From: Escherichia coli | Lineage (GTDB): Bacteria > Pseudomonadota > Gammaproteobacteria > Enterobacterales > Enterobacteriaceae | Reading direction: 5' to 3' (one strand) | Assembly: GCF_003334305.1 (NCBI RefSeq) | Contig: NZ_QOWS01000017.1 | DNA length: 64,000 bases | Shown here: one piece after another, positions 23,283-43,159 of the stretch | Position numbering within the stretch: the first letter of the stretch is position 1 | Layout: every line of letters starts with the position of its first letter | Notes under the pieces: model-generated | Seen by the model: only the letters and a program-made list of their open reading frames with translations | What the model was told of the DNA's origin: nothing | Databases searched by the model: none | Translations under genes and position numbers: made by a program

Positions 23283-23358
23283 GCCGATATAGCTCAGTTG
23301 GTAGAGCAGCGCATTCGTAATGCGAAGGTCGTAGGTTCGACTCCTATTATCGGCACCA
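23283..23358 (+). tRNA. thrW: tRNA-Thr (anticodon CGU)
   Basis: 76-nt cloverleaf sequence GCCGATATAGCTCAGTTGGTAGAGCAGCGCATTCGTAATGCG...CACCA; anticodon loop tTCGTAAt. Confidence 0.9.
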
Positions 23359-23360
23359 TC
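23341..23360. repeat. att core, copy 1 (3' end of thrW): ctcctattatcggcaccatc
   Basis: Exact 20-bp repeat also at 35186-35205; 19/20 copy at 47261-47280. Confidence 0.8.
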
Positions 23361-23522: not shown

Positions 23523-24692
23523 ATGCCCCTAAATGATATGCAGATTCGTCGTGCTAAACCTGAAGCTAAAGCCTATACACTTGGGGATGGGCAAGGGCTG
23601 TCTTTACTTGTAGAGCCAAATGGAAGTAAAAGCTGGCGATTTCGTTATCGCTATGCAGGTAAACCTAAAATGATCTCGCTTGGTGTCTATCCAACGATCA
23701 CACTTGCTGAAGCTCGTTCCCGTCGTGATGAGGCCCGAAAAATAGTGGCTGAGGGAAAAAACCCTAGTGAGGTACGAAAAGAACAAAAACTAGCATTAAG
23801 AATTCAATCTGAGAATGCATTCGAAAAGATTGCTAGAGAGTGGCATCGGATGAAGTCGTTAAAATGGTCTGCTGGGTACGCCTCGGATATTATGGAAGCG
23901 TTCCAGAATGATATTTTTCCGTATGTGGGAACGAGGCCTATAGGAGAAATTAAACCGCTAGAGCTGTTAAATGTACTGCGTAAAATTGAGAAGCGTGGCG
24001 CATTGGAGAAAATGCGAAAAGTACGGCAACGTTGCTCAGAAGTTTTTCGATATGCCATTGCTACCGGAAGAGCAGAGTTTAATCCTGCCGCAGATCTATC
24101 CAGTGCTCTCGAAGTACATAAATCAAATCATTTTCCATTCTTAAAATCAGATGAGATACCTGATTTTCTGCGTGCTTTAGATCGCTATACAGGGAGTCAA
24201 CTTGTCGTTATTGCTACGAAGTTATTGATGATCACGGGAGTAAGAACCATCGAATTACGTACCGCATTATGGTCAGAATTTGATTTGGATAACGCTATTT
24301 GGGAAATTCCTGCTGAAAGAATGAAAATGCGCAGGTCACATCTTGTTCCATTGTCGACTCAAGCGTTAGATTTACTTAATGAACTCAAGATAATGACAGG
24401 GAACTATCGTTATGTTTTTCCGGGGCGGAACGACCCGAACAAGCCTATGAGTGAGGCGAGTATAAATCAGGTTATCAAAAGGATTGGTTATGGCGGAAAA
24501 CTTACTGGACACGGATTTAGGCATATGATGTCTACATTGTTGCATGAACAAGGGTTTGATTCATTTTGGATTGAGATTCAATTAGCCCATGTAGATAAAA
24601 ATAGTATTCGTGGAACTTATAATCATGCGCTGTATTTAGAAAAGCGAAGAGATATGCTTCAGTGGTACTCTTCTTTTATAATGGAGCACTAA
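23523..24692 (+). CDS. int: P4-type tyrosine integrase
   Basis: 389-aa ORF directly 3' of the tRNA; P4-integrase-like N-terminus and C-terminal R/H-x-x-R/Y catalytic signature (…GHGFRHMMST…). Confidence 0.9.
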   Translation: MPLNDMQIRRAKPEAKAYTLGDGQGLSLLVEPNGSKSWRFRYRYAGKPKMISLGVYPTITLAEARSRRDEARKIVAEGKNPSEVRKEQKLALRIQSENAFEKIAREWHRMKSLKWSAGYASDIMEAFQNDIFPYVGTRPIGEIKPLELLNVLRKIEKRGALEKMRKVRQRCSEVFRYAIATGRAEFNPAADLSSALEVHKSNHFPFLKSDEIPDFLRALDRYTGSQLVVIATKLLMITGVRTIELRTALWSEFDLDNAIWEIPAERMKMRRSHLVPLSTQALDLLNELKIMTGNYRYVFPGRNDPNKPMSEASINQVIKRIGYGGKLTGHGFRHMMSTLLHEQGFDSFWIEIQLAHVDKNSIRGTYNHALYLEKRRDMLQWYSSFIMEH

Positions 24693-24693
24693 A

Positions 24694-26397
24694 ATGTATA
24701 TTGATAATGTGTATTTAAAAGGATTTAGGAACTATTCTGATAGTTTTGTAAAATTTAATTATTCAACTCTTATAATTGGTGGTAATGATGTTGGTAAGAC
24801 CAACTTATTGTATTCATTAAGGATTTTGTTGGATAAAAGCTTTTCGGATTTAGATTTAGAACCTAAAAATAGCGATTTTCATATTGATGCGAAAGGAAAT
24901 CAGTGTGAAGAGTTAGAAATAATAATTAATTTTCGTGAAGTAAAAGAGGATGCTGTTCTCTCTAAGTTAGCGGGGTATGTTAGTGATGATGCACAAACAT
25001 ACATCAAATATAAAGCATACAGAGCTACTCTTGATTACAAGTTATATATAGGCCACAAAGAATCTGAAATGGATGAGATTAGTGGCAGATTTTATCTTAA
25101 ATATTTAAATTTACGCTATGTGAATTCACAGCGAGACCTTGCTAAATATATATCTACAGAGAAAAAACATTTACTTCGGCTTGCTCAGGAAATGAGAAAC
25201 GAGGAGCAAGTGCGGAAGGATGAAAATACTTTGAATGAATTAACTAATTTATTAAATGATGTCAATGATAAGGTAAAAGAAATAAGCTACGTCTCGACCG
25301 CTACGGAAGAATTGAATGATGAGTTAAAGAAATTATCATATAACAATGAAAAGATTTCTGTAATGCTCGATTCTGGAGCAATTGGTGTTGATCAGTTTAT
25401 TGAAAAATTAGAGTTAAGTTCAAATACAAATGGAAAAAAGGTAATGCTTGGAGGGGACGGATTTAATAACCAAGTATTACTTGCATTATGGAAAGCCAAG
25501 AGTGTACGCGAGCACGATACTGAAAATGAAGTGGTTATATATTGTGTTGAAGAACCTGAATCACATCTTTATCCGCACCAACAGAGAAAATTATCTGAGT
25601 ATTTAATTAGTAAATTGCCGGGGCAGTCTCTAGTAACTACGCATTCTCCGCAAATTGCCATTAATTACTCACCAGATTCAATAATTAAAATTTGCTCTTA
25701 TAACGGTGAGTCTTACGCAGCAAGTGAAGGGTGTTCAGATTGCATAAGTAATGCCTGGAGTGGAATGGGATACAGGATGAGTATACTTCCTGCAGAGGCA
25801 TTCTTCGCTAATGTCGTATTCTTGGTCGAAGGGCCTTCTGAAATGTTATTTTATCAGGCCCTTGCAAAAGAGTGCCAAATTGATCTGGATTTCTTTAATA
25901 TAAGTATATTATCAGTTGATGGCGTTCAATTTGAAGTTTATAGAAAAATTCTTGATGCACTTGAGATTAAATGGGTTGCTCGTACAGATAATGATTCGTC
26001 TAAAGTTCCAAGGAAAAAAGAGTGGCAATATTCAGGTTTAAATCGAGCTTTGGCTCTATGTGGAATGGAGCCACTAAAGAATGAATTAACGGAAATATCT
26101 CAAGCTCAAAGAATAGAGAAACACAAAATTTATAAAGATAAGCTTAAACATCATAATATATTTGTTTCAATTAATGATCTCGAGGGTGATATTGGCGTTG
26201 AGTTAAGTACACAGCTGAAAGAATATGTAGGTGTTGATAATGAGGAAATTGCTGCTGATTATTTAAGAGGAAAGAAAGCAATAAGGATGCAAGAGTTCTT
26301 AGGTGAATACTCTTATGCACTGAAAAATATTTCAGACGGTGAATTAATTCAACCCCTTTTAACTGCTGTAAAATTGGCTACGGAAGAGTTGAGATGA
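24694..26397 (+). CDS. gajA: Gabija GajA-like protein: OLD-family ABC-ATPase plus TOPRIM nuclease
   Basis: 567 aa; N-terminal P-loop GGNDVGKTNLLYSL; ABC-like …VIYCVEEPESHLYPHQQRKL…; C-terminal TOPRIM-like …VVFLVEGPSEMLFYQ… and …ARTDNDSSK…. Confidence 0.75.
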   Translation: MYIDNVYLKGFRNYSDSFVKFNYSTLIIGGNDVGKTNLLYSLRILLDKSFSDLDLEPKNSDFHIDAKGNQCEELEIIINFREVKEDAVLSKLAGYVSDDAQTYIKYKAYRATLDYKLYIGHKESEMDEISGRFYLKYLNLRYVNSQRDLAKYISTEKKHLLRLAQEMRNEEQVRKDENTLNELTNLLNDVNDKVKEISYVSTATEELNDELKKLSYNNEKISVMLDSGAIGVDQFIEKLELSSNTNGKKVMLGGDGFNNQVLLALWKAKSVREHDTENEVVIYCVEEPESHLYPHQQRKLSEYLISKLPGQSLVTTHSPQIAINYSPDSIIKICSYNGESYAASEGCSDCISNAWSGMGYRMSILPAEAFFANVVFLVEGPSEMLFYQALAKECQIDLDFFNISILSVDGVQFEVYRKILDALEIKWVARTDNDSSKVPRKKEWQYSGLNRALALCGMEPLKNELTEISQAQRIEKHKIYKDKLKHHNIFVSINDLEGDIGVELSTQLKEYVGVDNEEIAADYLRGKKAIRMQEFLGEYSYALKNISDGELIQPLLTAVKLATEELR

Positions 26398-28016
26398 TAG
26401 ATTTTACCCATGAGCAAAAAGCAGCAATAGATTACCCATCTAGTATGGTATTGACGGCTTGTCCTGGAAGTGGGAAAACAGCAGTAATCGTAGAGAAGAT
26501 TGTCCGTGACTTGGTGGAATGCAAGGAATATCAGGGTGTTATTGCCATATCGTATACTAACAAAGCAAGCGATGAACTGAAAAAGAGATGTTTAAAGGCT
26601 ACTCCAAATTCAAAATCAAGCTTTTTTGGGACAATAGATAAATTTTATTTGACTGAAGTTATTTTACCATTCATTAAGCAATTATGGGGAAGAGTTGATG
26701 ACTTACATGTAGTTAAGCTTAATGAGTTAGCTTCTTCTGAAAAAGATAGGCTTTCTGCTTTTTTTAATGTCGAATTCATTTGTGAAAAAATTAATGAGTA
26801 TGATTTTAAGGATATAAAGGAACTATACGCCAATGGTATTCTAATACTGGAGTTTATACCATTGCTTGCATTTTATATATTGCGTAACTCGTTAGCATGT
26901 CGCCGATATATCGCTAAAAAATACACATCTATATATATTGATGAGTATCAAGATGCTGGATGTGTTCAGCATCTTCTTTTTCTTTATCTTTTCGAACTTG
27001 GAGTAAAAGCGGTTGCAGTTGGTGATGCTGACCAATCCATATATTCATATGCGGGTAAAAGTTCGAAATACTTAATGTCTTTACTGGATGAAAAAAGTGG
27101 CTTTGCCCCTTTTAAAATAACTATAAATCATCGTTCTCATTCATCTATAGTTAATTATGCTTCTCGATTGTTGAATGAAAACTGTGACTTGTTAATAACA
27201 GATGAAATTCGTGTCTACAGAAAAACTGTTAATGGTACTCAATGTGAAATAGCTAAGTGGATTGATGCTAATATTAACAATATTAAACGAAAGTTCAATA
27301 TTTCAAAAGAAAAAGAGATAGCGATACTTACTGCAACGAATAGTTCTGTCGCTTTAGTATCCGGCCTTATAAACTCCAAAGCAAGAGCATATCTTGATGA
27401 TGAGCTGTCTGTACTCGGTGGAGATGTGTCTCTCTTATTAAAGAACCTTTTGAATTATCGATTTAATAAAACGATTACAGCACAGGCTATCATTGAAAGT
27501 TTAAATTACAAGGTGCTAGAGAGGAATGCAATAAGAAAGATGAGGGGGGTTATTAGAGATGTGAGAGATTCTAATGACAACCAACTTATTCCTGATTTAC
27601 GTAAGGCAGTAAAATTATTAATCAACGCTGATATTTCTGCTAACCATATTGATGCCATTAACTCAATCTTACACAATAAAATGATGCTAAATAATTATTT
27701 ACCAGTTAGTGATGATGAGTTACAAATAATGACTTTACATAAAGCAAAAGGACTAGAGTTCGACTTTGTTTTTCATTTGGATCTTTATGATTGGATATTA
27801 CCGCGAAGGGAATATATAAAACATTGTTTTGATGAGGTTTTTTCACATTATGAGCAATGTCTGAATCTTCATTATGTTGGAGTTACTAGGGCCAAAAAAG
27901 CCGTGGTATTAATAAATTCTACTGAGCGTTTAAATTATCAGAGTGAATTAAAAAAAGCGAAACCATCTCAGTTCTTGTCACTAAAAGGACTTGAAAGTCT
28001 GTATAAAAAAATTTAA
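26394..28016 (+). CDS. gajB: Gabija GajB-like protein: UvrD/Rep-like SF1 helicase
   Basis: 540 aa; helicase motifs I CPGSGKT, Ia ISYTNKAS, II IDEYQDAG, V/VI …TLHKAKGLEFDFVFHL…; start overlaps the gajA stop. Confidence 0.75.
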   Translation: MIDFTHEQKAAIDYPSSMVLTACPGSGKTAVIVEKIVRDLVECKEYQGVIAISYTNKASDELKKRCLKATPNSKSSFFGTIDKFYLTEVILPFIKQLWGRVDDLHVVKLNELASSEKDRLSAFFNVEFICEKINEYDFKDIKELYANGILILEFIPLLAFYILRNSLACRRYIAKKYTSIYIDEYQDAGCVQHLLFLYLFELGVKAVAVGDADQSIYSYAGKSSKYLMSLLDEKSGFAPFKITINHRSHSSIVNYASRLLNENCDLLITDEIRVYRKTVNGTQCEIAKWIDANINNIKRKFNISKEKEIAILTATNSSVALVSGLINSKARAYLDDELSVLGGDVSLLLKNLLNYRFNKTITAQAIIESLNYKVLERNAIRKMRGVIRDVRDSNDNQLIPDLRKAVKLLINADISANHIDAINSILHNKMMLNNYLPVSDDELQIMTLHKAKGLEFDFVFHLDLYDWILPRREYIKHCFDEVFSHYEQCLNLHYVGVTRAKKAVVLINSTERLNYQSELKKAKPSQFLSLKGLESLYKKI

Positions 28017-28036
28017 TTACGTATCTTGGCGCGCAG

Positions 28037-28055
28037 TGCTCTCCCCGCCTCGCCC
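28037..28055 (-). other. P2/P4-type cos site (19-nt cohesive-end sequence)
   Basis: Reverse complement ggcgaggcggggagagcac differs at one position from the P2/P4 cos sequence as I recall it (GGCGAGGCGGGGAAAGCAC). Confidence 0.6.
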
Positions 28056-28219
28056 GCCCGCTTTGCGGGGCGGTTTTAATGCAGTTGCACTGACACGCTC
28101 AGACCGCGCCGGGAATGGCGCGGTCTGCAGAAAATGAGTCAGGAAAACGCATGCAAAGCCATGCACCTTATCGATGCATGGCTTTTTTCAGTAAAAACAG
28201 GCGGATTTTTCGGGGAGTT

Positions 28220-28792
28220 TTACACAGACTGACGTGATGCCAGTTCTGCACTTTTACGCGAAAAAATCATGTTCTGCGCAGGGGTGAATTTTTCACGGCT
28301 GTCATCCACCGAAGCCGCGTCAGGCCTGAATCCGATGGTCGTTAAAATGTCGCTATCCTGTGCGGAATAATTAATTTTTTCCCCCTTCGCAAGCCAGGAC
28401 AGAAGGGCTTCACGCAGGGCATCTGTGGCACGCTGTATGGCACAGTTTCGGGCAATGGCCGTCAGCTCACTGTAGCCCATCAGCTCCGGTGCCAGTGCGG
28501 CCGCCAGTGCTGTGCCGTGCTGCTGCATAAAATCATTCAGCCGCTCGCGGATGCTGATGTGCTGAACGGCTTCATGCGAACGAACATAACGACCGGCGGC
28601 CTGATTCACCTGCCATTTTCTGACTTCGATAATATTGCGTAATTCGTCCAGGCGACTGACGTTTCTGCCTTCCCCGGACAGAAGCCGCAGATATTCCTGT
28701 TCGGCTGCCGCCAGTTCATTTTTGCGCTGAAGCCATGCCGCTTTGTTATTCTGGCAGACCTCAAAAGCCTGCTGTAATGACATTGTGGTCAC
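28220..28792 (-). CDS. psu: P4 Psu (polarity suppression / capsid decoration protein)
   Basis: 190-aa ORF; …LQQAF..CQNNKAAWLQRKNELAAAEQEYLRLL… matches P4 Psu as I recall it. Confidence 0.85.
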   Translation of the reverse strand: MTTMSLQQAFEVCQNNKAAWLQRKNELAAAEQEYLRLLSGEGRNVSRLDELRNIIEVRKWQVNQAAGRYVRSHEAVQHISIRERLNDFMQQHGTALAAALAPELMGYSELTAIARNCAIQRATDALREALLSWLAKGEKINYSAQDSDILTTIGFRPDAASVDDSREKFTPAQNMIFSRKSAELASRQSV

Positions 28793-28806
28793 ACCCCGTC
28801 TCCTGA

Positions 28807-29052
28807 TTAATGGTTGAATGGTGAGCTGTAACAGCCTTTAACTTTTCGGACAACAGCCGGTGCTGTGCTTGCCGGTGCTGGTTTTTCCTCCGTGACCGGA
28901 GAACGAATCACGGCACAAATTGACTCATGCGTTTTAAATGTCGCCGAACAGTAAATATTCTGGCACTGCAGATAACTTTCTTTGACATTGTCACTCACAT
29001 ACCGGCTGGTGCGGGTATGCGCTGAATGACGACAGAAAGGGCAGCGCATCAT
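28807..29052 (-). CDS. Ogr/Delta-family zinc-finger late-gene activator
   Basis: 81-aa ORF with C-x2-C…C-x4-C pattern (MMRCPFCRHSAHTRTSRY…CQNIYCSATF) like P2 Ogr / P4 Delta. Confidence 0.85.
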   Translation of the reverse strand: MMRCPFCRHSAHTRTSRYVSDNVKESYLQCQNIYCSATFKTHESICAVIRSPVTEEKPAPASTAPAVVRKVKGCYSSPFNH

Positions 29053-29783
29053 GACAGCAGTCCTCTGGCCTTAAGCACTGCTCCCTGCTGGTCTATTTTG
29101 TCCTGCCACACCTTGCGCTGTGCCGGTGTGCCTGCCACCTCATAATCCATGTGCGGGAGTGTTGCCGCTGACAGTCCGGTCAGCCGGAGAACCGGCTCGC
29201 CGGTGAGGCTGATTTGCATCTGTTTTATTTTCTGTTCCAGCGATGATTTCACCTGCTGCATGACAGCTTTATCGGGTGCGACGTAGCCCTGATGGCCGGT
29301 GGTGTTGGCGAGCGGATTTTCCTGTACCAGGATACTCAGATGCATTGCCCGGACAAGCGCCTCACAGGTTTCATTCAGGGCGTGTTCCAGCTCATGCTCT
29401 GCATACAGACTCAGAAGGTGATGATGTGCCTTCCGGTAGGCGGTGGCCGTGCTGTCACACGCCCCTTTCAGGCGTTCACGTTCAAAATTCAGCACCACGG
29501 CCAGATTGTCATATTCCTGTACCAGCTCCCGGCGTGCCACGCGCTCAATGTGGCGCTGTTTCAGCTCATCGCTCAGGACACCACCGGCTGCACGAAAGGC
29601 CGTGCGCCAGTCGTCAGCGTCGTTTCCGTCGGCCTGCGCCAGCGCATTTTTTTCCTGCTCTGCCCGTTCAATGGCCGTAACGGTCTCATCCATCAGGCGG
29701 GCGTTCTCAAGATGGGCGGCTCTGGACTTTTCCAGTTGTGCCAGTGCGGGTTGCAGATATTCAGGGATAGTGTGGTCAGACAT
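29049..29783 (-). CDS. sid: P4 Sid (capsid size-determination external scaffold)
   Basis: ORF 29049-29849; start placed at MSDHTIPEYL... (244 aa); coiled-coil-rich. Confidence 0.8.
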   Translation of the reverse strand: MSDHTIPEYLQPALAQLEKSRAAHLENARLMDETVTAIERAEQEKNALAQADGNDADDWRTAFRAAGGVLSDELKQRHIERVARRELVQEYDNLAVVLNFERERLKGACDSTATAYRKAHHHLLSLYAEHELEHALNETCEALVRAMHLSILVQENPLANTTGHQGYVAPDKAVMQQVKSSLEQKIKQMQISLTGEPVLRLTGLSAATLPHMDYEVAGTPAQRKVWQDKIDQQGAVLKARGLLS

Positions 29784-29817
29784 TTTCCGGCTCCTCGTCA
29801 CTTCAGGTTGAGAAAAT

Positions 29818-29873
29818 TGTGACGTACACCGGACAACAACACGACGCATTGCAGATGTGCCAGCCCTGACACA
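29818..29873. promoter_or_regulatory. two TGT-N12-ACA Ogr/Delta-type activator sites in the divergent late-promoter region upstream of sid
   Basis: TGTgacgtacaccggACA (29818-29835) and TGTgccagccctgacACA (29856-29873). Confidence 0.55.
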
Positions 29874-30602: not shown

Positions 30603-30991
30603 TGATGCCCGCTCTGCAAAAAGTCCCTTTTTCTGGCTTGCCTTTTTCCGGCATTTGCGGATATAGTTTTTCCGTTGCCGCAAAATCGGCAGCCGGGCGT
30701 GAGAACCCGTGTAACTCGAAGGCGACATATGACGCGCCATGCGTCTTTTTTTGTGTCGCAATCAACGCCACAGAGCGCCAGATTATGGTGTGGCGTGTGG
30801 TTTGCCGTGCAGGTATGATCCTGTTCGCAATCGCATGTTATGCCACTGAGTCAATGGTAGCTCAGGCGGGGCAGCCTCCGGGCTGGCCGGTATTCTTCGA
30901 GGCCGGTATTCTCACCCCCGTCTGGGCTATCGCCATCGAGCGTGAGAACTCCGGCGATAGCAGTTATTTGCTACTCGAAGGAGGCTGCCTT

Positions 30992-32387: not shown

Positions 32388-34721
32388 ATGAAAATGAACG
32401 TAACCGCCACCGTCAGCCATGCACTCGGCCACTGGCCGCGTATTCTCCCGGCGCTGGGGATTCAGGTGCTGAAAAACCGTCATCAGCCCTGTCCGGTCTG
32501 TGGCGGGAGTGACCGCTTCCGTTTTGATGACAGGGAGGGGCGCGGCACCTGGTACTGCAATCAGTGTGGTGCCGGTGACGGCCTGAAACTGGTTGAAAAG
32601 GTGTTTGGTGTTTCCCCGTCCGACGCGGCCGCAAAGGTGGCTGCCGTGACCGGCAGCCTGCCACCGGCTGACCCGGCAGTGACGGCCGCCGCCGTTGCTG
32701 AAACAGACGCTGCCCGGAAGAACGCCGCCACACTGGCACAAACCCTGATGGCGAAAACCCGTACCGGAACCGGTAACGCCTACCTGACCCGCAAGGGCTT
32801 TCCCGGCCGGGAATGCCGGATGCTGACCGGCACACACAGAGCCGGTGGCGTGAGCTGGCGCGCCGGTGACCTTGTGGTGCCACTGTATGACGACAGCGGC
32901 GAACTGGTTAACCTTCAGTTAATCAGTGCTGACGGCCGTAAGCGCACCCTGAAAGGCGGACAGGTCAGGGGCACCTGTCACACCCTTGAAGGACAGAATC
33001 AGGCCGGAAAACGTCTGTGGATAGCGGAGGGATACGCGACCGCACTTACCGTACATCACCTGACCGGTGAAACGGTGATGGTGGCGCTTTCTTCCGTGAA
33101 CCTCCTTTCTCTGGCCAGCCTTGCCCGGCAGAAGCATCCGGCCTGTCAGATTGTCCTTGCCGCAGACCGTGACCTCAGCGGTGACGGCCAGAAAAAAGCC
33201 GCCGCAGCCGCAGATGCGTGTGAGGGCGTTGTTGCCCTGCCGCCGGTCTTCGGTGACTGGAATGATGCCTTCACGCAGTACGGCGGGGAGGCCACCCGTA
33301 AGGCCATTTACGATGCCATCCGGCCACCGGCTGAAAGCCCGTTCGACACCATGAGCGAAGCAGAGTTTTCCGCCATGAGTACCAGCGAAAAGGCCATGCG
33401 TATCTATGAGCATTACGGTGAGGCGCTCGCGGTCGATGCCAACGGCCAGCTTCTGTCTCGCTATGAAAATGGTGTCTGGAAGGTGCTGCCGCCACAGGAC
33501 TTTGCCCGGGATGTGGCCGGGCTGTTTCAGCGTCTGCGCGCGCCGTTCTCCTCCGGGAAGGTGGCCTCCGTGGTGGACACCCTGAAGCTGATTATTCCGC
33601 AGCAGGAAGCCCCCTCCCGCCGCCTGATTGGCTTTCGTAACGGTGTGCTCGACACACAGAACGGCACGTTCCACCCGCACAGTCCGTCACACTGGATGCG
33701 CACCCTGTGCGATGTGGATTTCACCCCGCCGGTGGACGGTGAAACGCTGGAGACCCACGCCCCCGCGTTCTGGCGCTGGCTTGACCGTGCCGCCGGTGGC
33801 CGTGCGGAAAAACGCGACGTGATTCTGGCCGCACTGTTTATGGTGCTGGCAAACCGCTATGACTGGCAGCTCTTTCTGGAGGTGACCGGTCCCGGCGGCA
33901 GCGGCAAAAGTATCATGGCCGAAATAGCCACCCTGCTGGCCGGGGAGGATAACGCCACGTCGGCCACCATTGAGACGCTGGAATCCCCGCGTGAACGTGC
34001 CGCGTTAACTGGCTTCTCACTGATACGCCTGCCGGACCAGGAAAAATGGAGCGGCGACGGTGCCGGACTCAAGGCCATCACCGGCGGCGATGCGGTGTCC
34101 GTTGACCCGAAATACCGGGATGCATACTCCACGCATATCCCGGCGGTGATTCTGGCCGTGAACAATAACCCGATGCGCTTCACCGACCGCAGCGGCGGCG
34201 TGTCACGCCGGCGGGTGATTATTCACTTCCCGGAACAGATAGCCCCGCAGGAGCGCGACCCGCAGCTTAAGGACAAAATCACCCGCGAGCTGGCGGTCAT
34301 CGTGCGTCACCTGATGCAGAAGTTCAGCGACCCGATGCTCGCCCGGTCACTGCTTCAGTCCCAGCAGAACTCAGACGAGGCGCTGAACATCAAACGGGAT
34401 GCCGACCCGACGTTTGATTTTATCGGCTATCTGGAAACCCTGCCGCAGACCAGCGGCATGTATATGGGGAACGCCAGTATCATCCCGCGTAATTACCGTA
34501 AATACCTCTATCACGCCTATCTGGCCTACATGGAGGCAAACGGCTACCGGAATGTACTCAGTCTGAAAATGTTCGGGCTGGGGCTGCCGGTGATGCTGAA
34601 GGAATACGGACTGAATTACGAGAAGCGCCATACCAAACAGGGGATACAGACCAACCTGACGCTGAAAGAGGAAAGCTACGGCGACTGGCTGCCAAAATGT
34701 GACGACCCTGCAACAACCTGA
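32388..34721 (+). CDS. P4 alpha primase-helicase (zinc-finger primase, P-loop helicase, C-terminal iteron-binding domain)
   Basis: 777-aa ORF; N-terminal CPVCGG…CNQCG zinc motif; Walker A GPGGSGKS in the central region. Confidence 0.9.
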   Translation: MKMNVTATVSHALGHWPRILPALGIQVLKNRHQPCPVCGGSDRFRFDDREGRGTWYCNQCGAGDGLKLVEKVFGVSPSDAAAKVAAVTGSLPPADPAVTAAAVAETDAARKNAATLAQTLMAKTRTGTGNAYLTRKGFPGRECRMLTGTHRAGGVSWRAGDLVVPLYDDSGELVNLQLISADGRKRTLKGGQVRGTCHTLEGQNQAGKRLWIAEGYATALTVHHLTGETVMVALSSVNLLSLASLARQKHPACQIVLAADRDLSGDGQKKAAAAADACEGVVALPPVFGDWNDAFTQYGGEATRKAIYDAIRPPAESPFDTMSEAEFSAMSTSEKAMRIYEHYGEALAVDANGQLLSRYENGVWKVLPPQDFARDVAGLFQRLRAPFSSGKVASVVDTLKLIIPQQEAPSRRLIGFRNGVLDTQNGTFHPHSPSHWMRTLCDVDFTPPVDGETLETHAPAFWRWLDRAAGGRAEKRDVILAALFMVLANRYDWQLFLEVTGPGGSGKSIMAEIATLLAGEDNATSATIETLESPRERAALTGFSLIRLPDQEKWSGDGAGLKAITGGDAVSVDPKYRDAYSTHIPAVILAVNNNPMRFTDRSGGVSRRRVIIHFPEQIAPQERDPQLKDKITRELAVIVRHLMQKFSDPMLARSLLQSQQNSDEALNIKRDADPTFDFIGYLETLPQTSGMYMGNASIIPRNYRKYLYHAYLAYMEANGYRNVLSLKMFGLGLPVMLKEYGLNYEKRHTKQGIQTNLTLKEESYGDWLPKCDDPATT

Positions 34722-34765: not shown

Positions 34766-35070
34766 CCCGAAGGTGAACAATCCACTGTTCACCCTTCACC
34801 GTATATTCACCCGTTATCACACTGAAATTAAAAGAGAAAAACGAAAGGTGAACAGTGTGAACAATCAAATCAAAAAAAACTTTTTTCTTCCTGAGTGATT
34901 TCAGCACGGGAAATTAATCCCCTGCACAAGTCACACCGGCAGAATGCCGGAGGTGAAGAATCGAATGTTCACCCTTCACCCATTATTCACCACCTATCCA
35001 ACTGAAATAAAAGGAGAAAACAGAAAGGTGAACAGTGTGAACAGTTCTTTCGAAAAAAAATTTTTTTCTT
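34766..35070. repeat. P4 crr-like region: two tandem repeats of about 120-125 bp, each carrying TGTTCACC-type iterons
   Basis: Near-identical units beginning ccgaaggtgaacaatccactgttcaccc… and ccggaggtgaagaatcgaatgttcaccc…. Confidence 0.7.
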
Positions 35071-35185
35071 ATTTTTAATTGTGCGAAAAACAAGCGACAC
35101 ACGCAGTGTGTATAGATATGTGTATAGTTATATTTTTTGAATATTATAATGTATTACAAATCAATGTGTTAGCTTGTAATATTCA

Positions 35186-35205
35186 CTCCTATTATCGGCA
35201 CCATC
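35186..35205. repeat. att core, copy 2 (attR of the P4-like satellite and left boundary of element 2)
   Basis: Exact 20-bp copy of the thrW 3' end. Confidence 0.8.
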
Positions 35206-35808
35206 AAGAAAATCAATAACTTAGCTTAACTTCTCTAAGAAATTGTATCTTCTGTTATCACTTACAAACGCCTATACGTTGTTATGGGCTTTGGTAGTGT
35301 AACACGTATGGGCGAGTAGTTCCCAGGCTCAACCTCGTAACAAGTTCCTTTGAAGCTGGAAGACGTGCCACCGTCTCTAAACCTTCTACCAAAACTCTTA
35401 GCAAGATGTTCCACACCTGGCGCGGTGTCCAATGATGCTACACGTCGTGAGACGTTGCAGAGGATAAACAGGCTAAATGATGGGAAGAGTTTTAAGTGCA
35501 ATAGTGGATTAAAGCCCACCTCTTCAAAACCTAACTTGATCGGGAAAGAATCAAGCTCTAGCACGGTTTCGTCCACCGGAGTACAACGGGTGCCTGATAA
35601 GAGAAGAACTGCTAAGACTTCATAGCTTTTGTGAAAAAGCCCTTTTTAGTGGATACGCCTACGGCGCTTATTTTTTGGTATAACCATCAAAGGCGCTTTA
35701 TGGCTCCTATTGTCTTGAAAATGTATCTTTACTTGTATTGTGTTTTATGCGTAGTCTCCCTGTGTAGTATGTAACTTGTTAATTTTCATATGAATACAGA
35801 GGCACACG

Positions 35809-35967
35809 ATGAAAAACATTGCAGCTATCAAACGGAATAACCGCAAGATTCACGCTCGTAAGTTCCTGTCTACGCCAGAAGGAAAAGCCTGGCTAGAGCG
35901 TAAACAGAGAGAAAACGAAGAAAGAAAACTCCTTAGTGAGTTGAAATGGCTTAGAGAGGATTTCTGA
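35809..35967 (+). CDS. small basic hypothetical protein (52 aa), below the ORF-track size cutoff
   Basis: ATG preceded by an agagg RBS; translation MKNIAAIKRNNRKIHARKFL…. Confidence 0.3.
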   Translation: MKNIAAIKRNNRKIHARKFLSTPEGKAWLERKQRENEERKLLSELKWLREDF

Positions 35968-36310
35968 AAATCTCCAGAACGCAACAGGACGCATTCTAAC
36001 GCTGTTTTCATTACTCGGTATAGGGATTATAGGTGATGTGTGTTTAATGCGTCTGTGAGCTTGTTTTGTGCCTTATTTTGCATTTTCATAATGCAGGAGA
36101 GAACACGGAAAGCCTTAAAATTAATTATTGGGGTATTTAAGGCTATTTTTAGGTTATTTAAGGGTATTAAACTTGATTTAATTGATTGAAATATAAACAG
36201 ATAATTATGTATCTTATTGATTTATAAGGTTATTTTTAAATAAAGGTAAATAAAAAATAAATAGCCATAAATAGCTATAAATACATCTAAATACCTATAT
36301 CCCTTCCCTT

Positions 36311-36694
36311 ATGGCTAGATTGCGAGAAGTGCTTAACGCGATTTTCAGCGCCCCCCGATCTGGAAAATCCAGAATCCCCAAATATCAGCAAGGAATTTTC
36401 TTGCGTAATCAACATCGTTTTTACCTATTAAATCATTACACAGAAAGCCTTTCTGTAATGTCTCTCACTAAACTTTCACTAAACACGAGAATGATCGGTT
36501 TTATGTCGGATCAGATGCTAGAAATAGCACCACGTCTCACAAGGGCTGTAAGCGATGAAACCAGTGTTTATGCGGGTGCAGGTCAAAATATAGGCCAAAA
36601 TACATTTAACATAATAAACGTAATATGCACTAAGGAACACATAGAACGCCTTGAGTTGATGTATCAGGGGAAAAGTGGTGGATTTTTTACGTAG
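36311..36694 (+). CDS. hypothetical protein
   Basis: 127-aa ORF in an AT-rich region; no recognisable motif. Confidence 0.25.
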   Translation: MARLREVLNAIFSAPRSGKSRIPKYQQGIFLRNQHRFYLLNHYTESLSVMSLTKLSLNTRMIGFMSDQMLEIAPRLTRAVSDETSVYAGAGQNIGQNTFNIINVICTKEHIERLELMYQGKSGGFFT

Positions 36695-36720
36695 GAGCAC
36701 GAGAGGGCTTCTATTGACTT

Positions 36721-36999
36721 TTGTATGCTATGAAATATAATAGAAGGTTTTTTTATGTTGATAGTGATTGCACATTAAAGATTGAAAGCAAATTTAAACA
36801 TAAATTTTCAACACGTGAAAGAGAACTTGTTCGACAAATGATAAAACGTTTATTGAGCAACAATTTTGCAGTGATGCGCTATATGCCGAATTACACAAGG
36901 CTTTGCGAAAGTGATGTAAAAGTGAAGAAAGTAAGAATTGCAACTTTAAGCTACTTTTCATTGAATTTTTTAGTATGGAATTACACAGGAATAAGTTAG
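36721..36999 (+). CDS. hypothetical protein
   Basis: 92-aa ORF; no recognisable motif. Confidence 0.25.
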   Translation: MYAMKYNRRFFYVDSDCTLKIESKFKHKFSTRERELVRQMIKRLLSNNFAVMRYMPNYTRLCESDVKVKKVRIATLSYFSLNFLVWNYTGIS

Positions 37000-37085
37000 G
37001 GATATTCTATGATTTACACAGGGAATATAGGGGGATTATGGCACACACATAGAAAGACATTACACAAAGTGCTATGTGACAAATG

Positions 37086-37303
37086 GATGTAACGAGAGGT
37101 TACATTCAGCTATCTGAAATGCTCTCTGTAAGAAAGTTGGTAGTAACGATATGTTACATAGACTAATTATTGAATGTAACGATATTACACATCGGTAGTA
37201 ACGATACGTTACATCGACTAATTATTGAATGTAACGATATTACACATCGGTAGTAACGATACGTTACATCGACAGATGATTGGATGTAACGAAAGGTTAC
37301 ACA
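37086..37303. repeat. iteron/operator array: seven GTAACG-N4-5-GTTAC-type palindromic sites, including two perfect 57-bp tandem units
   Basis: Units ggtagtaacgata(c/t)gttacat…gaatgtaacgatattacacatc repeated head-to-tail; an AT-rich stretch follows at about 37310-37390. Confidence 0.7.
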
Positions 37304-38398
37304 ATAAGACTATATTATTTATAATACTAAATAAAACTATATTAGATTATTAATTAGATCATAATAATATTCTTTATATCTATATATATGATCTTTTGCC
37401 TTCCGGCGTTAGCTTCACTCCCTGGCAAGCAGCCTTACTCCGCTACCTTTCGGGCTACGTTGGCTGGCCCGTTCCGCTCACACCGAAAGCAAAGCGTTAC
37501 TTTCTTCGTGTAACTATCGTGGCGGTAACGCCCACGAAGAAATACTATTGCGCTGTGCGCAGAAGAGTAATCACCTAACCAATCATAGATTGCTTATGTG
37601 TTAACTCTCTCTACCTCTTAATTCCACTTCCTACATTTAATAACTCTGTTATTCTCTGTAGTTGTGTAATTACTCGAAGAGAGAGCGGCTAAAGCTCAAT
37701 TACACTCTGCTTTCCTCGTGTAAGTTCACTAAGCCTCAATACAATTTCACTTCCTACATTCTGTAGTCGTGTAATTGTTTTCGGTGGAAAAGCCAGAGGC
37801 GACACCGAAAGAGAATTCTGATCTTATTAATCTTATCTATCTTAGTTAATCTTCTTACTTTATCTACTTTATTATTAATAATAGCTTTATAAGCTCTGTG
37901 TAGCTCTCTGACGCAAGAAACAGCATTCAGGAAGGGAATCACCTTAGAAAAGGTGTTCTTTGCGTCATAATGTGTTTTATGAAGGATTCAGAGGTGTTTC
38001 ATAACAGGAATGTATAGAGGATATTTTAATTAATTAAAAATAAGGGGTCTAAATGCTTCTCTAACAACATTAAGCAGGGTAGGGAATGGAAACGCATTGC
38101 CTACATATAATAAGCTCACTACAGGGCTTTACAGAGCGTTTTATAAAGTGACTCTCTGTTTTATATTTACCATTACCTTTTCATATACCTAACAAATACA
38201 AAATAAGCCCCTTCAATAAGCCTCTGGCGAGCGAAACAGCCATTAGATAAGGGAATGTATTGCTTTTATCAAAATCTCGTCAGAATGCGATTGAGAGTGT
38301 TTTAGCGGATAATGAAGAATAGCACTACATAGAAGAGCACGAATTGTTAAGCAAAATCATAACATACTGAAAAAGATCAGTTTTTTTGTGAAAAGGTA

Positions 38399-38427
38399 TT
38401 GACAAACGTCTCTTTCTGTGCAATAAT
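38399..38427 (+). promoter_or_regulatory. sigma70-like promoter (TTGACA, 17-bp spacer, TGcAATAAT extended -10)
   Basis: Read directly from sequence; about 130 nt upstream of the 38555 ORF. Confidence 0.5.
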
Positions 38428-38554
38428 AGGTATTAGAGGGGACAGGAATAGATTCTTATCCTCTAAATAATTAAACCAATGCACCGCACTTTGAAGCCCA
38501 AGAGGCTTGCAAGGTGTTTTTTCTTTTAACCAAATCGAATAAGGAGGCTAATTA

Positions 38555-38731
38555 ATGAAATATTTCACTCCACAGGATGTAGTAGAAGCCTGGAAACGTG
38601 GTGAGATCAACCGCTTTAAAGTAAGGATGTATAGAAACACCGCTCGCCGTTGTGGTTATCCAGAGCGTGAAAAATGTTTTGACGATGCACTGAAAATTAT
38701 TGATGAACTGCGTAAAGCTGAGAAAGAATAA
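38555..38731 (+). CDS. small hypothetical protein (58 aa)
   Basis: ATG with a strong aaggagg RBS; first gene after the promoter. Confidence 0.45.
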   Translation: MKYFTPQDVVEAWKRGEINRFKVRMYRNTARRCGYPEREKCFDDALKIIDELRKAEKE

Positions 38732-38753
38732 TAGACAAGAGAAGGAGAAAACT

Positions 38754-38921
38754 ATGAGCGAAACTAAGAAACCAATTCCGCGCACTTACCTTCACGTTGA
38801 CCCTGAAATCTTCAAGGTTTTATTTGCTGAAGCCAAGAAAAGGCAAATTATGGTCAGTGATTTGATGTTAGAAATCATTACTGAAGCAGCAGAGAACATC
38901 AAACAAAAAAAGGGTAAGTGA
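38754..38921 (+). CDS. ribbon-helix-helix (CopG/Arc-like) DNA-binding protein
   Basis: 55 aa; …RTYLHVDPEIFKVLFAEAKKRQIMVSDLMLEII… fits a beta-strand then two helices (RHH). Confidence 0.5.
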   Translation: MSETKKPIPRTYLHVDPEIFKVLFAEAKKRQIMVSDLMLEIITEAAENIKQKKGK

Positions 38922-38974
38922 TCCTCATTCACTTTAGTAGCGCATTAAGCGTGATTTATAAGGAGATGATTCTA

Positions 38975-39718
38975 ATGTCTAAAATTAAATTGATTCGTGA
39001 AAAATACCAGTATGTTGATAAACAAACAGGAGAAATTAAAGACCGAACTTTGAATATACCGCATTACTTTTGTGAGATTGAATTTATCTACTCCTCAAGT
39101 GTTGATGGTGGAAAAGTTAAGTTTAGTGCAGAAATGCAAAAATTATATTGCTATGTTTCAGATTGGGAGAAATCAGGGGGGATATGTTTTGAAACACAAA
39201 CGAAGTTAAGTAAAGTTTGTGGCTGTAGCCGTAAGACAGTTAATGAACTGATTGGTCTTATGATTAAAATCGGTCTTTTAGAAGAGGTCGGAGAACGAAT
39301 TCCAAAACGTCCTTTAAAATTACGTGCGCTACCTCTCACAGATGCACATATTACTCCCCCAGGAGAATCATCACTCTCTGATCTTTCTGAGGCAGAAGAA
39401 GCACAGGAACAACCTAAAGGCCATAAACAGCCTTCTTTTGATGTTCTTGATGATTGGGATGCGCCTTTACCGTGGGAGACGGAAGAAACACCTGTTTCAT
39501 CAAGTGAAAAGGTAGCTAATGATAATGAGGAGGATGTATTAGAGAATTTTGCCTCTCTTATCATCCAGGAGAAACACACAAGAACAGGAGGAGCATCATT
39601 TATTGAGTTTGCAAATTCACTAGCTTATAGATACGGGCTAAAACGACCAAATGGTATTGAGGCATATTTTTCTAAGAATTACCCAAATGTATATGATGAA
39701 TTTGATATTCCCTTTTAA
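38975..39718 (+). CDS. helix-turn-helix protein with acidic C-terminal half (candidate replication initiator or regulator)
   Basis: ORF 38918-39718; start placed at the ATG after an aaggag RBS; winged-helix-like segment …TQTKLSKVCGCSRKTVNELIGLMIKIGLLEE…. Confidence 0.5.
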   Translation: MSKIKLIREKYQYVDKQTGEIKDRTLNIPHYFCEIEFIYSSSVDGGKVKFSAEMQKLYCYVSDWEKSGGICFETQTKLSKVCGCSRKTVNELIGLMIKIGLLEEVGERIPKRPLKLRALPLTDAHITPPGESSLSDLSEAEEAQEQPKGHKQPSFDVLDDWDAPLPWETEETPVSSSEKVANDNEEDVLENFASLIIQEKHTRTGGASFIEFANSLAYRYGLKRPNGIEAYFSKNYPNVYDEFDIPF

Positions 39719-40141
39719 TAAGGAGGACTATGATTCAATATTTAGTAAAAAAATCAAGTAGACAGAATTCAGTGTAATGACACAGGAAAACGCATCTACG
39801 AAACACTTGCTTACCTCTATAAAGGAAAGCCAACACCGCTAAAATATAGCGATGTGTTACATCGAGCAGGGTGCTCTGAAGCTGGTTTAAAATTCTGGCT
39901 GAAACAGCTATCAAATTTCGGTGTTATTGAAATGAAAGAGCTGTCTTTTTCTACATTCAATCTCAAAAGATTAGATAAAGAAATAGAATTCATCTATTCC
40001 ACTCTCTAAAATCTCTCTATGTAATTAAAATATAAAAGGAAAACATTATTATGATAGTAGCTATGTATTGGTTATTGTTCTTTCTCACGTTAGAAGCATA
40101 CTTTGGGGTGTTTTCCTTTAAAAGAAAAGGAAAAGTAAATA

Positions 40142-40558
40142 ATGGCAAAAAGAAAAAACAACGTTGTTAAGAAAATCGGTGATTCAGCTTCTCTTCTAAG
40201 TAAACCTAAACCTAAATCTATTCTAAGACGTAAAGACTTTAAAGAGCTAGTTACGCTCACCAAGCAAAATAGCGCCCCTGGCGAATGGAAAACAGAGATC
40301 ATAGAACATTCTCCCTCTGTGCCTTGTGGAGATGAATTTAACGCCTTGCAAGAAATCTTATCTTCAACACCTGGCGTATTCTGGAAACCTAGAAAAAGAA
40401 AAGAGTATATCGTTGATAGCTCTGATTTACGCAAATACCAGATTTTAGGATTTGAAGATTATAACCACTACGTCGGTTATCTCGCCACCAATGGCCTAAA
40501 TAATTTAGTTCCTGAATTCCAAATTTTAGATAATGCTGATCACTATGGAGACTTTTAA
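40142..40558 (+). CDS. hypothetical protein with basic N-terminus
   Basis: 138-aa ORF. Confidence 0.45.
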   Translation: MAKRKNNVVKKIGDSASLLSKPKPKSILRRKDFKELVTLTKQNSAPGEWKTEIIEHSPSVPCGDEFNALQEILSSTPGVFWKPRKRKEYIVDSSDLRKYQILGFEDYNHYVGYLATNGLNNLVPEFQILDNADHYGDF

Positions 40559-40559
40559 T

Positions 40560-40898
40560 ATGAACAAAAACACGTATGACACAATTTATTCACTAATTAA
40601 TTATTATGAGGATGATTACCTCCTGCCTTTAAACCGCGCTGAACTTGAAGCATACAAAGAAAACACGCCAGGGGCGCTAAATGAGGCGTTTAAACACTGG
40701 GATTTAGCTGTGAATGCCTTTGAGCACCTTTCTAAAAGAGTAGAGATGCTCTGTAAGCGTGAAAACGCATACCTGACAGCCGATCAGATATGGGAGCTAT
40801 CAAACTGGATAGAAGATATTGAATCTGATGTTCGCTATGTAGGGGATGGCCTGGTTGAATTAGCTCAACGCTTAGGCGCTACTATCACAGAAGAATAA
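40560..40898 (+). CDS. hypothetical protein
   Basis: 112 aa from an ATG overlapping the upstream stop (taATG). Confidence 0.45.
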   Translation: MNKNTYDTIYSLINYYEDDYLLPLNRAELEAYKENTPGALNEAFKHWDLAVNAFEHLSKRVEMLCKRENAYLTADQIWELSNWIEDIESDVRYVGDGLVELAQRLGATITEE

Positions 40899-40927
40899 AA
40901 AAAGCAACAAAAAAGTTGTAAAATATC

Positions 40928-40959
40928 TTGACATTCCATCTATTGTATGTTAATATAAT
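40928..40959 (+). promoter_or_regulatory. strong sigma70-like promoter (TTGACA, 17-bp spacer, TAATAT)
   Basis: Read directly from sequence; followed by about 290 nt of structured leader before the 41248 ORF. Confidence 0.5.
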
Positions 40960-41247
40960 TATATAGGGGTGATTATTTTTCCTTTATTGGTTCGATATTA
41001 AAAATTCTTCCTGTCATTAAAGGGGAGTAAAATCTCCGCTCCCCGCTTCTCCTCCTTAAGTAAATACTGTGTCATTATACCTCTTTTTTCCTTTGTTATG
41101 CATACATCTTGGAGTATGCATAACATAGGGTAATTACATAGGTATGAGTTAATAAAAGGCGGCTCTAAATGCTGCCTTTTATTTTGCCCGTTATGCAACT
41201 TAAAAGTTGTATTTCTTACTTTAAAAAAGGTAACAAGGTTTATATAA

Positions 41248-41460
41248 ATGTTGTTTTTAAACGATAAAGAGCAAATCATCAAGTATAAAGATGAAATGCT
41301 GAAAATTAATCCACAAATTACCGAAATGGTAGCTAAATACGCTGGGTGTTCTGTCGAGGAAGTAGAAAGATGTGTTGAAAAATATTTTTCTCCTTCTACT
41401 CCGTCTACACCTTCCCTTAATGAATTAATCAAATTAAAAGCTAAGGAGATTACTAAATGA
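41248..41460 (+). CDS. hypothetical small protein
   Basis: 70-aa ORF; stop overlaps the next start. Confidence 0.4.
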   Translation: MLFLNDKEQIIKYKDEMLKINPQITEMVAKYAGCSVEEVERCVEKYFSPSTPSTPSLNELIKLKAKEITK

Positions 41461-41819: not shown

Positions 41820-41837
41820 TAAAAGGAATAATAATAA

Positions 41838-42869: not shown

Positions 42870-42955
42870 TATTTTAACGTGTAATAGAGGCGTGGCGTGA
42901 ATAACACGCTTCGCCTTTTTTTATTTATTTTTAAATTTTGAGAGGTGATTAAAAT

Positions 42956-43159
42956 ATGGAAGTGATTCTGAAATCAAAAAATGGTGTACACGTTTATTTA
43001 GATGCTAATGATTCAAGAGGCTTGTTAAATCTGAAATATCTATGTTCTCTCTTGGATGTTCCATATGAAGGCGTAAAAGCCCGAATGTTCAGATTAAACG
43101 AGAGTATTGATCAAGCTCTACACCATTTCTTAAGCAAAGAAGGTGGTAAAAATGATTAA
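42956..43159 (+). CDS. hypothetical small protein
   Basis: 67-aa ORF. Confidence 0.35.
   Translation: MEVILKSKNGVHVYLDANDSRGLLNLKYLCSLLDVPYEGVKARMFRLNESIDQALHHFLSKEGGKND

Follow-up and report, generated by a model that had tools for sequence, protein, structure and literature searches.

A probable Gabija anti-phage system carried as satellite cargo in Escherichia coli

Gabija and its relatives

The closest relative of solved structure for the locus analyzed here is the Gabija system of Bacillus cereus VD045 (8SM3, 8J4T, 8JQB, 8U7I), which shares its two-protein architecture over the full length with the pair found in Escherichia coli strain A7. A GajA4:GajB4 supramolecular complex is not known from any Gabija other than that of B. 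cereus (PMC10781630, PMC10822852). Two further sources describe GajA nicking and cleavage inhibited by NTPs and (d)NTP hydrolysis by GajB stimulated by DNA ends (PMC8136825, 10.1101/2023.05.02.539174). Gabija is also reported to act on linear DNA ends that are free of RecBCD (PMC12407980). The TOPRIM active site of B. cereus GajA has been defined as a Glu behind the second strand of the domain (E379), a conserved Gly (G409) and a DxD motif (D432/D434; PMC10781630).

B. cereus Gabija is the best structural match of the A7 pair and has the catalytic residues (E379 and D432/D434, with identical numbering) and the helicase motifs in common with it. On the other hand, the proteins of the two systems are only ~20-24% identical, A7 GajB is 46 aa longer, A7 GajA carries Asp409 in place of Gly, and A7 Gabija, unlike its B. 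cereus counterpart, is satellite-borne and has a Gram-negative host. Since the identity is this low, the target sequence, phage range and regulation of the A7 system may differ from those of B. cereus Gabija.

Two other types of system are also close to the locus. Phage P2 Old and the class 1 OLD proteins (e.g. Thermus scotoductus OLD, 6P74) have the same ABC-ATPase and TOPRIM fold as A7 GajA, and P2 Old, like A7 gajAB, is phage-borne exclusion cargo adjoining cos in the P2/P4 system. However, class 1 OLD is encoded by a single gene without a helicase partner. PARIS (AriA/AriB) likewise combines an OLD-related ATPase with a TOPRIM domain and is frequent in the P4 hotspot that holds A7 Gabija. 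In PARIS the ATPase (AriA) and the DUF4435 TOPRIM (AriB) are separate and no helicase is present, whereas the A7 TOPRIM is fused to the ATPase and has a helicase as its partner.

The psu-int hotspot of P4 adjoins cos, lies in an element subject to a capsid limit of ~12 kb, and holds cargo that has been shown to defend against phages (Rousset et al. 2022, PMC9122126). The same survey labels system #6 of the hotspot (153 occurrences) Gabija, classes it as a known system, and lists the exact A7 pair, WP_021546002 and WP_024236189, in its Table S1A. Domainator (2024) recovers the same system, its cluster 7 being Gabija. The A7 gajAB pair at this position is an already-known Gabija, so that its recognition, though right, is unremarkable. 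The earlier note on this DNA had placed the interest in the allele and its satellite context; both are already in Rousset et al., so this part of its assessment does not hold.

Identity of gajA and gajB

Within the 64,000-nt window (the whole stretch of DNA analyzed), identical in sequence to E. coli strain A7, gajA (24694..26397, + strand, 567 aa) and gajB (26394..28016, + strand, 540 aa) are adjacent and co-oriented, with a start-stop overlap, ATGA, at 26394-26397. The int ORF ends at 24692 and leaves a gap of 1 nt to gajA. The earlier note had described two coupled genes directly behind an integrase, with ORF coordinates that proved exact. The gajA ATG is preceded by GGAG at a distance of 7 nt, and the gajB start by GGAAGAG. 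Two ORFs of more than 500 codons in DNA of 33% GC, whose profile matches reach E-values of 1e-253 and 3e-229, far exceed what could arise by chance.

ORF, profile, PDB, motif and structure-model evidence identifies gajA as a class 2 OLD-family gene encoding an ABC-ATPase joined to a TOPRIM nuclease. The PADLOC GajA model PDLC00066 covers residues 1-564 of the 567-aa protein (841 bits), and Pfam places AAA_15 at 1-186 and 140-322 and OLD-like_TOPRIM at 370-434, the latter with full model coverage. The ATPase motifs are GGNDVGKT (29-36, Walker A K35), VIYCVEEPE (281-289, Walker B/D-loop) and THSP (316-319, H-loop), and those of the TOPRIM domain are EGPSE (379-383) and TDND (431-434), with E379/E383, G410 and D432/D434 as the key residues. 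Across 37 GajA homologues, down to 51% identity, K35, E379, E383, G410, D432 and D434 are invariant, as are E286, E287 and H317 of the ATPase. Among solved structures, the best sequence match is B. cereus GajA (8jq9 and relatives, E 3e-34, residues 3-510), compared with E 3.5e-5 for class 1 OLD, and E379, D432 and D434 align with the B. cereus active-site residues without gaps.

The AlphaFold2 model of GajA has a mean pLDDT of 73.6, with values above 85 over the TOPRIM domain and the C-terminal half; the insertion in the ATPase domain (~residues 130-280) is modeled with low confidence. When this model was compared with the PDB by Foldseek, ranks 1-14 were all GajA chains (E 5e-31 to 1e-21, TM 0.54-0.72), followed by class 1 OLD (6p74) and then retron Eco8. 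Position 409 is Asp, versus the Gly called invariant in B. cereus GajA. We considered whether this substitution might leave an inactive TOPRIM domain and rejected the idea, as none of the 37 homologues departs from D409-G410 and the residues E379 and D432/D434 are unaltered.

By ORF, profile, PDB and motif evidence, gajB encodes an SF1A UvrD-like helicase. The PADLOC GajB model PDLC00123 covers residues 2-540 of the 540-aa protein (760 bits), which contains the Pfam domains UvrD-helicase, AAA_19 and UvrD_C. Its motifs comprise CPGSGKT (23-29, Walker A K28), SYTNKA (53-58), DEYQD (183-187), GDADQSIY (210-217), HKAKGLEFD (449-457) and VGVTRAK (495-501). B. cereus GajB (8jqb and relatives, E 1e-35) ranks ahead of Rep, UvrD and PcrA among solved structures, with 126.6 bits versus 86.6 for Rep. 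As judged from these alignments and motifs, the predicted catalytic residues are intact in both proteins (K35, E379, D432 and D434 in GajA; K28 and DEYQD in GajB).

These data bear out what the earlier note had read from the letters: an N-terminal P-loop/ABC ATPase and a C-terminal TOPRIM in the first protein, the SF1 UvrD/Rep motif set in the second, with every motif it quoted present in both, and the identity of the pair as Gabija. Both proteins are full-length by profile and by comparison with solved-structure sequences, and the predicted fold of GajA agrees. The profile-HMM searches that the note had proposed thus gave end-to-end matches to GajA and GajB, and the structure prediction it had suggested, run for the first protein, returned GajA chains first.

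By analogy with its family, the A7 allele would be expected to defend against phage. The steps proposed here are taken over from published studies of Gabija in B. cereus and P. aeruginosa (PMC8136825, 10.1101/2023.05.02.539174, PMC10822852, PMC10781630 and PMC12407980). GajA and GajB would assemble into a GajA4:GajB4 complex, in which physiological NTP bound at the ABC-ATPase domain of GajA would hold the TOPRIM nuclease off. GajA would nick or cleave the invading DNA once the replicating phage depletes nucleotides, or where the ends of linear phage DNA are protected against RecBCD. GajB would then sense the resulting DNA ends and hydrolyze (d)ATP/(d)GTP, so that circularization and replication of the phage genome would be blocked.

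The satellite and its cargo slot

The pair lies inside an att-bounded element. The tRNA-Thr(CGU) gene thrW (23283..23358, + strand; ARAGORN, Rfam tRNA) is the integration site, with the attL core (23340-23360) at its 3' end. The identical attR core ACTCCTATTATCGGCACCATC is found at 35185..35205 (+ strand), the two forming a direct repeat (family D7), and the spacing of these 21-nt cores sets the length of the satellite at 11,845 bp (11.85 kb). Behind thrW follows the tyrosine integrase of a P4-like satellite (23523..24692, + strand; phrog_1 integrase, E 1e-74). Next to the cargo, 20 nt past the gajB stop, a P2/P4-type cos core, GGCGAGGCGGGGAGAGCAC (28036..28054, - strand), marks the right edge of the slot. 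This core has 1 mismatch to what we take to be the cos 19-mer, with 0.02 chance matches expected.

The late genes psu (28220-28792), delta (28807-29052, 81 aa) and sid (29049-29849) occupy 28220..29849 on the - strand and were identified by PHROG (phrog_6366 Psu, 329 bits; phrog_603; phrog_6165, 382 bits) and RefSeq annotation. They are followed by the P4 immunity RNA region (30661..30937, + strand), with c4-a1b1 targets, isrK and the C4 antisense RNA (30850-30937); its matches to RF03163, RF01394 and RF01695 all exceed the gathering score. The alpha primase-helicase (777 aa; phrog_2249, 806 bits) lies at 32388..34721 on the + strand. By PHROG, Rfam and RefSeq, the P4 core of int, psu, delta, sid, alpha and C4 immunity RNA is complete, and gajAB sits as cargo between int and psu, adjoining cos.

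The GC content of gajA (0.337) and gajB (0.330) stands against 0.544 for psu-delta-sid, 0.608 for alpha and 0.548 for proBA. In other P4-like satellites at thrW, with int 85-89% identical, the same slot holds an ORC-CDC6 family AAA ATPase (L005) or a UG7 reverse transcriptase with a partner (L006). The earlier note had placed the pair in a satellite hotspot and read its AT-richness relative to the flanking genes as consistent with swappable cargo. All of this stands: the pair is at 0.33-0.34 GC and the satellite core at 0.54-0.61, unrelated genes fill the slot elsewhere, and cos, att repeats, PHROG core genes and Rfam C4 RNA establish the context.

A scan for sigma-70 promoters found 18 sites versus 17.9 in shuffled sequence, with no recognizable promoter signal for gajAB, and a consensus scan placed a GC hairpin with a trailing T-run, resembling a terminator, at 28054..28083 (+ strand), where it could end an int-gajA-gajB transcript. 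Given the 1-nt gap after int, the lack of a separate promoter signal, and the hairpin and T-run after cos, gajAB is probably expressed by read-through from int or from a promoter inside int.

Considering all the above results, we assign a probability of about 0.9 to the reading that gajAB is a functional-looking Gabija anti-phage system and that it is the cargo which an 11.85-kb P4-like satellite, integrated at thrW in E. coli, carries in its variable int-cos-psu slot. The cassette would travel with the satellite when this is packaged by a P2-type helper, and both lysogen and satellite would be protected from competing phages.

Alternative readings, alleles and prior record

The pair could be Gabija by descent and yet a decayed or silent relic that has lost expression or activity in the A7 satellite. 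The absence of a recognizable promoter of its own would fit such a loss, as would the rarity of the allele, carried by 16 of the 5,426 complete genomes (more distant alleles occur in ~40), and the damage to two of these copies, one split by IS1 in H9 (strain A27) and one truncated to 80% in H16. However, both ORFs are intact in the remaining 14 of the 16 carriers, at 99.7-100% identity, and all catalytic residues are kept. Moreover, the int-gajA-gajB layout with its start/stop overlaps is preserved in Klebsiella and Serratia satellites whose GajA is 85% and 66% identical to that of A7, which implies purifying selection. We therefore regard decay as very unlikely. A further reading is that gajAB mainly serves the life cycle or maintenance of the satellite (helper interference, stabilization or addiction, DNA processing) and not defense against unrelated phages. 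The tight coupling to int and the conservation of the arm as a unit across genera would suit this role, and the reported action on RecBCD-free linear ends (PMC12407980) could in principle reach the cos-ended genomes of helpers or competitors. Nevertheless, gajAB is dispensable for the satellite, since other P4-like satellites at thrW lack it and have unrelated genes in the slot. The Gabija family is experimentally a defense system (PMC10781630, PMC8136825), and Rousset et al. 2022 (PMC9122126) showed slot cargo to be anti-phage; a primary maintenance role has only a slim chance of being correct.

There is hardly any probability that the locus encodes another OLD-family system, such as PARIS or a class 1 nuclease of the P2 Old type. 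The ABC-ATPase and TOPRIM architecture is common to all of them, PARIS is at home in this hotspot, and PADLOC AriA appears as a secondary match. That match reaches only 92 bits versus 841 for GajA, ATPase and TOPRIM form a single protein instead of the latter lying on a DUF4435 partner, and the adjacent gene encodes a UvrD-like helicase matching GajB with 760 bits, so PARIS was rejected. Class 1 OLD was discarded as well, as each of the 14 GajA chains outranks 6p74 in the fold comparison.

A search of a full-text library with the accessions of the A7 pair and of the common P4 allele (four RefSeq ids) retrieved no paper, the only record being the supplementary table of Rousset et al. When the cassette was compared by megablast with 50,697 phage records, no match resulted, and it is absent from the sequenced free phages and the P4 reference. 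Wu et al. took the E. coli Gabija that they tested from ECOR49, and their Gabija analysis deals with tmn/Gabija plasmids; we found no link to the A7 allele.

A7 gajAB is a minor allele. The common Gabija of the P4 hotspot (system #6, represented by WP_001356949 and WP_001356948, e.g. E. coli RM14723) occupies the same slot, int - gajA - gajB - cos - psu, and shares with A7 the thrW site, gene order, start/stop coupling and low GC (0.34). Identity between the two is 62% for GajA and 49% for GajB, against 87% for Int, 95% for Psu and 98% for Sid. Compared with the Klebsiella satellite, Int is 92%, GajA 85% and GajB 72% identical. By these identities, the int-gajAB arm of A7 is Klebsiella-like, and its sid and psu are E. 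coli-like relative to RM14723; GajB also diverges consistently faster than GajA (49-72% vs 62-85%).

A tentative and rather doubtful extension is that the int-gajA-gajB arm is a unit moving between thrW-type P4-like satellites of different genera. Several consequences may be proposed. The rare A7 allele may have a different phage range or escape anti-Gabija proteins (Gad1) effective on other alleles, and defense expression may be coupled to that of the integrase. Additionally, the clade-invariant Asp409 might reflect an altered TOPRIM chemistry.

The value of the locus for discovery is small, and it has a modest use as part of a natural allelic series. Four int-gajAB arms are available in one genomic frame (two from E. 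coli, one from Klebsiella and one from Serratia), with 62-85% GajA and 49-72% GajB identity to A7. Such a series could map the determinants of Gabija phage specificity and of sensitivity to Gad1/Gad2, and whether satellite Gabija spares the P2 helper. Within int, homology to other thrW-type int alleles (80-90% identical) stops at query positions 1229-1271 of 1293, and the last ~22-64 nt of int fall past this end.

Identity of the gene pair

We found that the two genes at 24694-28016 are an intact Gabija system placed in the int-to-psu hotspot of a P4-like satellite, as the earlier note had correctly identified, and its observation is confirmed in all details. The gajA ORF (24694-26397, + strand, 567 aa) begins after a 1-nt spacer from the end of the integrase gene int (24692) and has a GGAG 7 nt upstream, while its stop overlaps the start of gajB (26394-28016, + strand, 540 aa) as ATGA, in agreement with the ORF positions, the translational coupling and the place directly after the integrase previously claimed. 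The motifs quoted for both proteins were all found at the expected places, and the AT-richness relative to the satellite neighbours was borne out (GC of 0.337 for gajA and 0.330 for gajB, vs 0.544 for psu-delta-sid, 0.608 for alpha and 0.548 for proBA).

The profile searches gave near end-to-end matches in PADLOC, with the GajA model PDLC00066 covering residues 1-564 of 567 of the first protein (841 bits, E 1e-253) and the GajB model PDLC00123 residues 2-540 of 540 of the second (760 bits, E 3e-229). The best non-Gabija PADLOC models were much weaker, at 125 bits (DRT-associated helicase) and 92 bits (AriA). Pfam assigned AAA_15 and OLD-like_TOPRIM (370-434, whole model) to the first protein, and UvrD-helicase, AAA_19 and UvrD_C to the second. 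In NCBIfam, no model passed its cut-off for either protein, and all that the second yielded were hits to Rep, PcrA and UvrD below threshold. This accounts for the unspecific names that the two carry in RefSeq ("ATP-dependent nuclease" and "UvrD-helicase domain-containing protein"). By sequence comparison, the closest solved structures were B. cereus GajA (E 3e-34, residues 3-510), with OLD fragments of classes 2 and 1 ranking behind it, and B. cereus GajB (E 1e-35, residues 14-518), with Rep, UvrD and PcrA behind. The structure predicted for GajA, built on a 37-sequence alignment from a single homologue search, had a mean pLDDT of 73.6, exceeding 85 in the TOPRIM and C-terminal half and low in the ATPase insertion (about 130-280). 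When compared with the PDB by Foldseek, its ranks 1-14 were all GajA chains (E 5e-31 to 1e-21, TM 0.54-0.72), followed by Thermus class 1 OLD and then retron Eco8. The two proteins are thus a GajA-type OLD-family nuclease and a UvrD-like GajB.

The TOPRIM active site of GajA has been assigned to E379, G409 and D432/D434 (Antine et al., PMC10781630). Here, E379, D432 and D434 carry the same numbers as in B. cereus GajA (ungapped alignment), and K35, E379, E383, G410, D432 and D434 are invariant in 37 homologues, down to 51% identity. In contrast, codon 409 (25918-25920) encodes Asp where B. cereus GajA has the reported invariant Gly. The D409-G410 pair is invariant in all 37 aligned proteobacterial homologues, and we read Asp409 as a feature of the clade and not as a defect. 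GajB retains the Walker A K28, DEYQD at 183-187 and motifs III, V and VI.

Beyond domains, residues and gene layout, the mechanism considered here is drawn entirely from other published Gabija systems. By analogy with these, GajA and GajB would assemble into a 4:4 complex (PMC10781630, PMC10822852). GajA would be a sequence-specific, nucleotide-inhibited nicking endonuclease (PMC8136825), and GajB a sensor of DNA termini with (d)ATP/(d)GTP hydrolysis activity (10.1101/2023.05.02.539174). The P. aeruginosa Gabija prevents linear phage DNA with RecBCD-free ends from circularising (PMC12407980).

The host satellite and its probably exchanged arm

The satellite is integrated at thrW, a tRNA-Thr(CGU) gene (23283-23358), between two copies of a 21-nt att core, ACTCCTATTATCGGCACCATC (23340-23360 and 35185-35205), which lie 11,845 bp apart; this length fits the small P4 capsid, for which Rousset et al. 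(PMC9122126) quote a maximum of ~12 kb. A P2/P4-type cos core (28036-28054) is found 20 nt after the gajB stop and is followed on the + strand by a GC hairpin with a T-run. Psu, Delta, Sid and the alpha primase were confirmed by PHROGs, and C4 antisense RNA, isrK and c4-a1b1 by Rfam. In two other thrW P4-like satellites, with int 85-89% identical, this slot is occupied by other cargo: one has an ORC-CDC6 family ATPase, the other a UG7 reverse transcriptase with its partner. The first cargo gene overlaps the int stop in both. Therefore, the proposed hotspot reading is correct.

The delta gene (28807-29052) is half-size, with 81 aa and one Ogr-like unit; Delta has 166 aa in the E. coli satellites of RM14723, L65 and PRO_A-1420, and short forms occur in the Klebsiella (81 aa) and Serratia (84 aa) satellites. 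Just past the end of alpha and ahead of attR lie two 120-nt direct repeats, 81% identical and 60 nt apart (34767-34886 and 34947-35066), arranged as in the cis replication region (crr) of P4.

The cassette and its flanks are identical to those of E. coli strain A7 (NZ_CP028767.1). Compared with this A7 satellite, the RM14723 satellite, a representative P4 allele also at thrW, is close in Int (87%), Psu (95%) and Sid (98%) and distant in GajA (62%) and GajB (49.5%). The Klebsiella pneumoniae satellite shows the reverse pattern (Int 92%, GajA 85% and GajB 72%, vs Sid 59% and Delta 57%), and that of Serratia marcescens has the same layout (GajA 66%, GajB 51%). The A7 satellite is hence a mosaic of a Klebsiella-like int-gajAB arm with E. 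coli-like sid and psu, and, given these opposite identity patterns, the arm appears to pass between satellites as a unit. Since the homology of int to thrW-type alleles of 80-90% identity stops 22-64 nt before its stop (24628-24692), the C-terminus of Int would belong to the exchanged module. GajB diverges faster than GajA in every comparison (RM14723, Klebsiella and Serratia), and the cassette GC is about 0.33-0.34 in all four satellites.

In every satellite examined (this one and those of RM14723, the ORC-CDC6 and UG7 cargo, Klebsiella and Serratia), the gene that opens the cargo lies on the strand of int and adjoins or overlaps its stop, which makes co-expression of the cargo with int probable. 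For gajAB, this would probably occur by read-through, as there is no intergenic space and a promoter scan of the cassette region gave no signal above background.

Frequency and prior record of the allele

The allele is rare, being found at ≥99.7% identity in 16 of 5,426 complete E. coli genomes, chromosomal in every case and at thrW in all three copies whose flanks were inspected (A7, EC-107 and L65). About 40 further genomes carry more distant alleles (67-70% nucleotide identity). In strain A27 (NZ_CP028748.1) the allele is split by an IS1A insertion, and in LF3-1 (NZ_CM139230.1) a truncated copy retains only 80% of the cassette; both are natural knock-outs.

The earlier note had placed its interest in this allele and its satellite context, both of which turn out to be already catalogued (PMC9122126). 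The psu-int hotspot was surveyed across 20,125 E. coli genomes (Rousset et al. 2022, PMC9122126), and Table S1A lists the pair WP_021546002 and WP_024236189, the GajA and GajB accessions here, at least nine times. Table S1B names system #6 (UvrD_C/AAA_19 | AAA_15; 153 occurrences) as "Gabija (Doron et al., 2018)", and Domainator (PMC11754643) independently found it, as its cluster 7 (Gabija), 19 times among the 2,718 E. coli genomes of its set. Based on these entries, we conclude that the pair is already known, satellite context included. Our literature search found no experimental test of this gajAB allele. As a discovery the cassette holds little interest, and its minor value lies in belonging to a natural allelic series.

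A second element in tandem and the chromosomal flanks

A second element of ~12.1 kb and low GC (0.39) lies in tandem with the satellite (35206-47256), sharing the same tRNA-Thr att core, with a third, degenerate att copy at its far end (47257-47274). It has a weak replication-initiator-like ORF (38918-39718), PHROG matches to major head (41838-42869), to tape measure (43174-45012) and to tail proteins (45047-45760), and, at the far end, an integrase (45842-47206, - strand). The element looks like a satellite-like island, and at least 80% of its length is present in 227 of the 5,426 complete E. coli genomes; a literature search turned up no islands of this type.

Within it, 626 bp (38742-39367) are 97.6% identical to the Justusliebigvirus phage inny (MN850601, 120157-120781), and a 226-bp stretch is 99.1% identical to phage muut. 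Justusliebigvirus are phi92-like, large virulent phages of ~147 kb. These matches suggest recent DNA exchange with such phages, on which the element may perhaps depend. A 2.6-kb stretch (~35967-38555) without a RefSeq-annotated gene contains a 55-nt unit, GGTAGTAACGATATGTTACA..., repeated in tandem three to five times (37084-37303); the repeats look iteron-like and are possibly the replication origin of the element.

In the chromosomal flanks, Rfam matched IS009 (202 bits, 53636-53835) and naRNA4/CssrE (76 bits, 5232-5309), and among the core genes upstream are two toxin-antitoxin pairs (dinJ-yafQ and hicAB), rtcB-prfH, and an flhA pseudogene with lafU.
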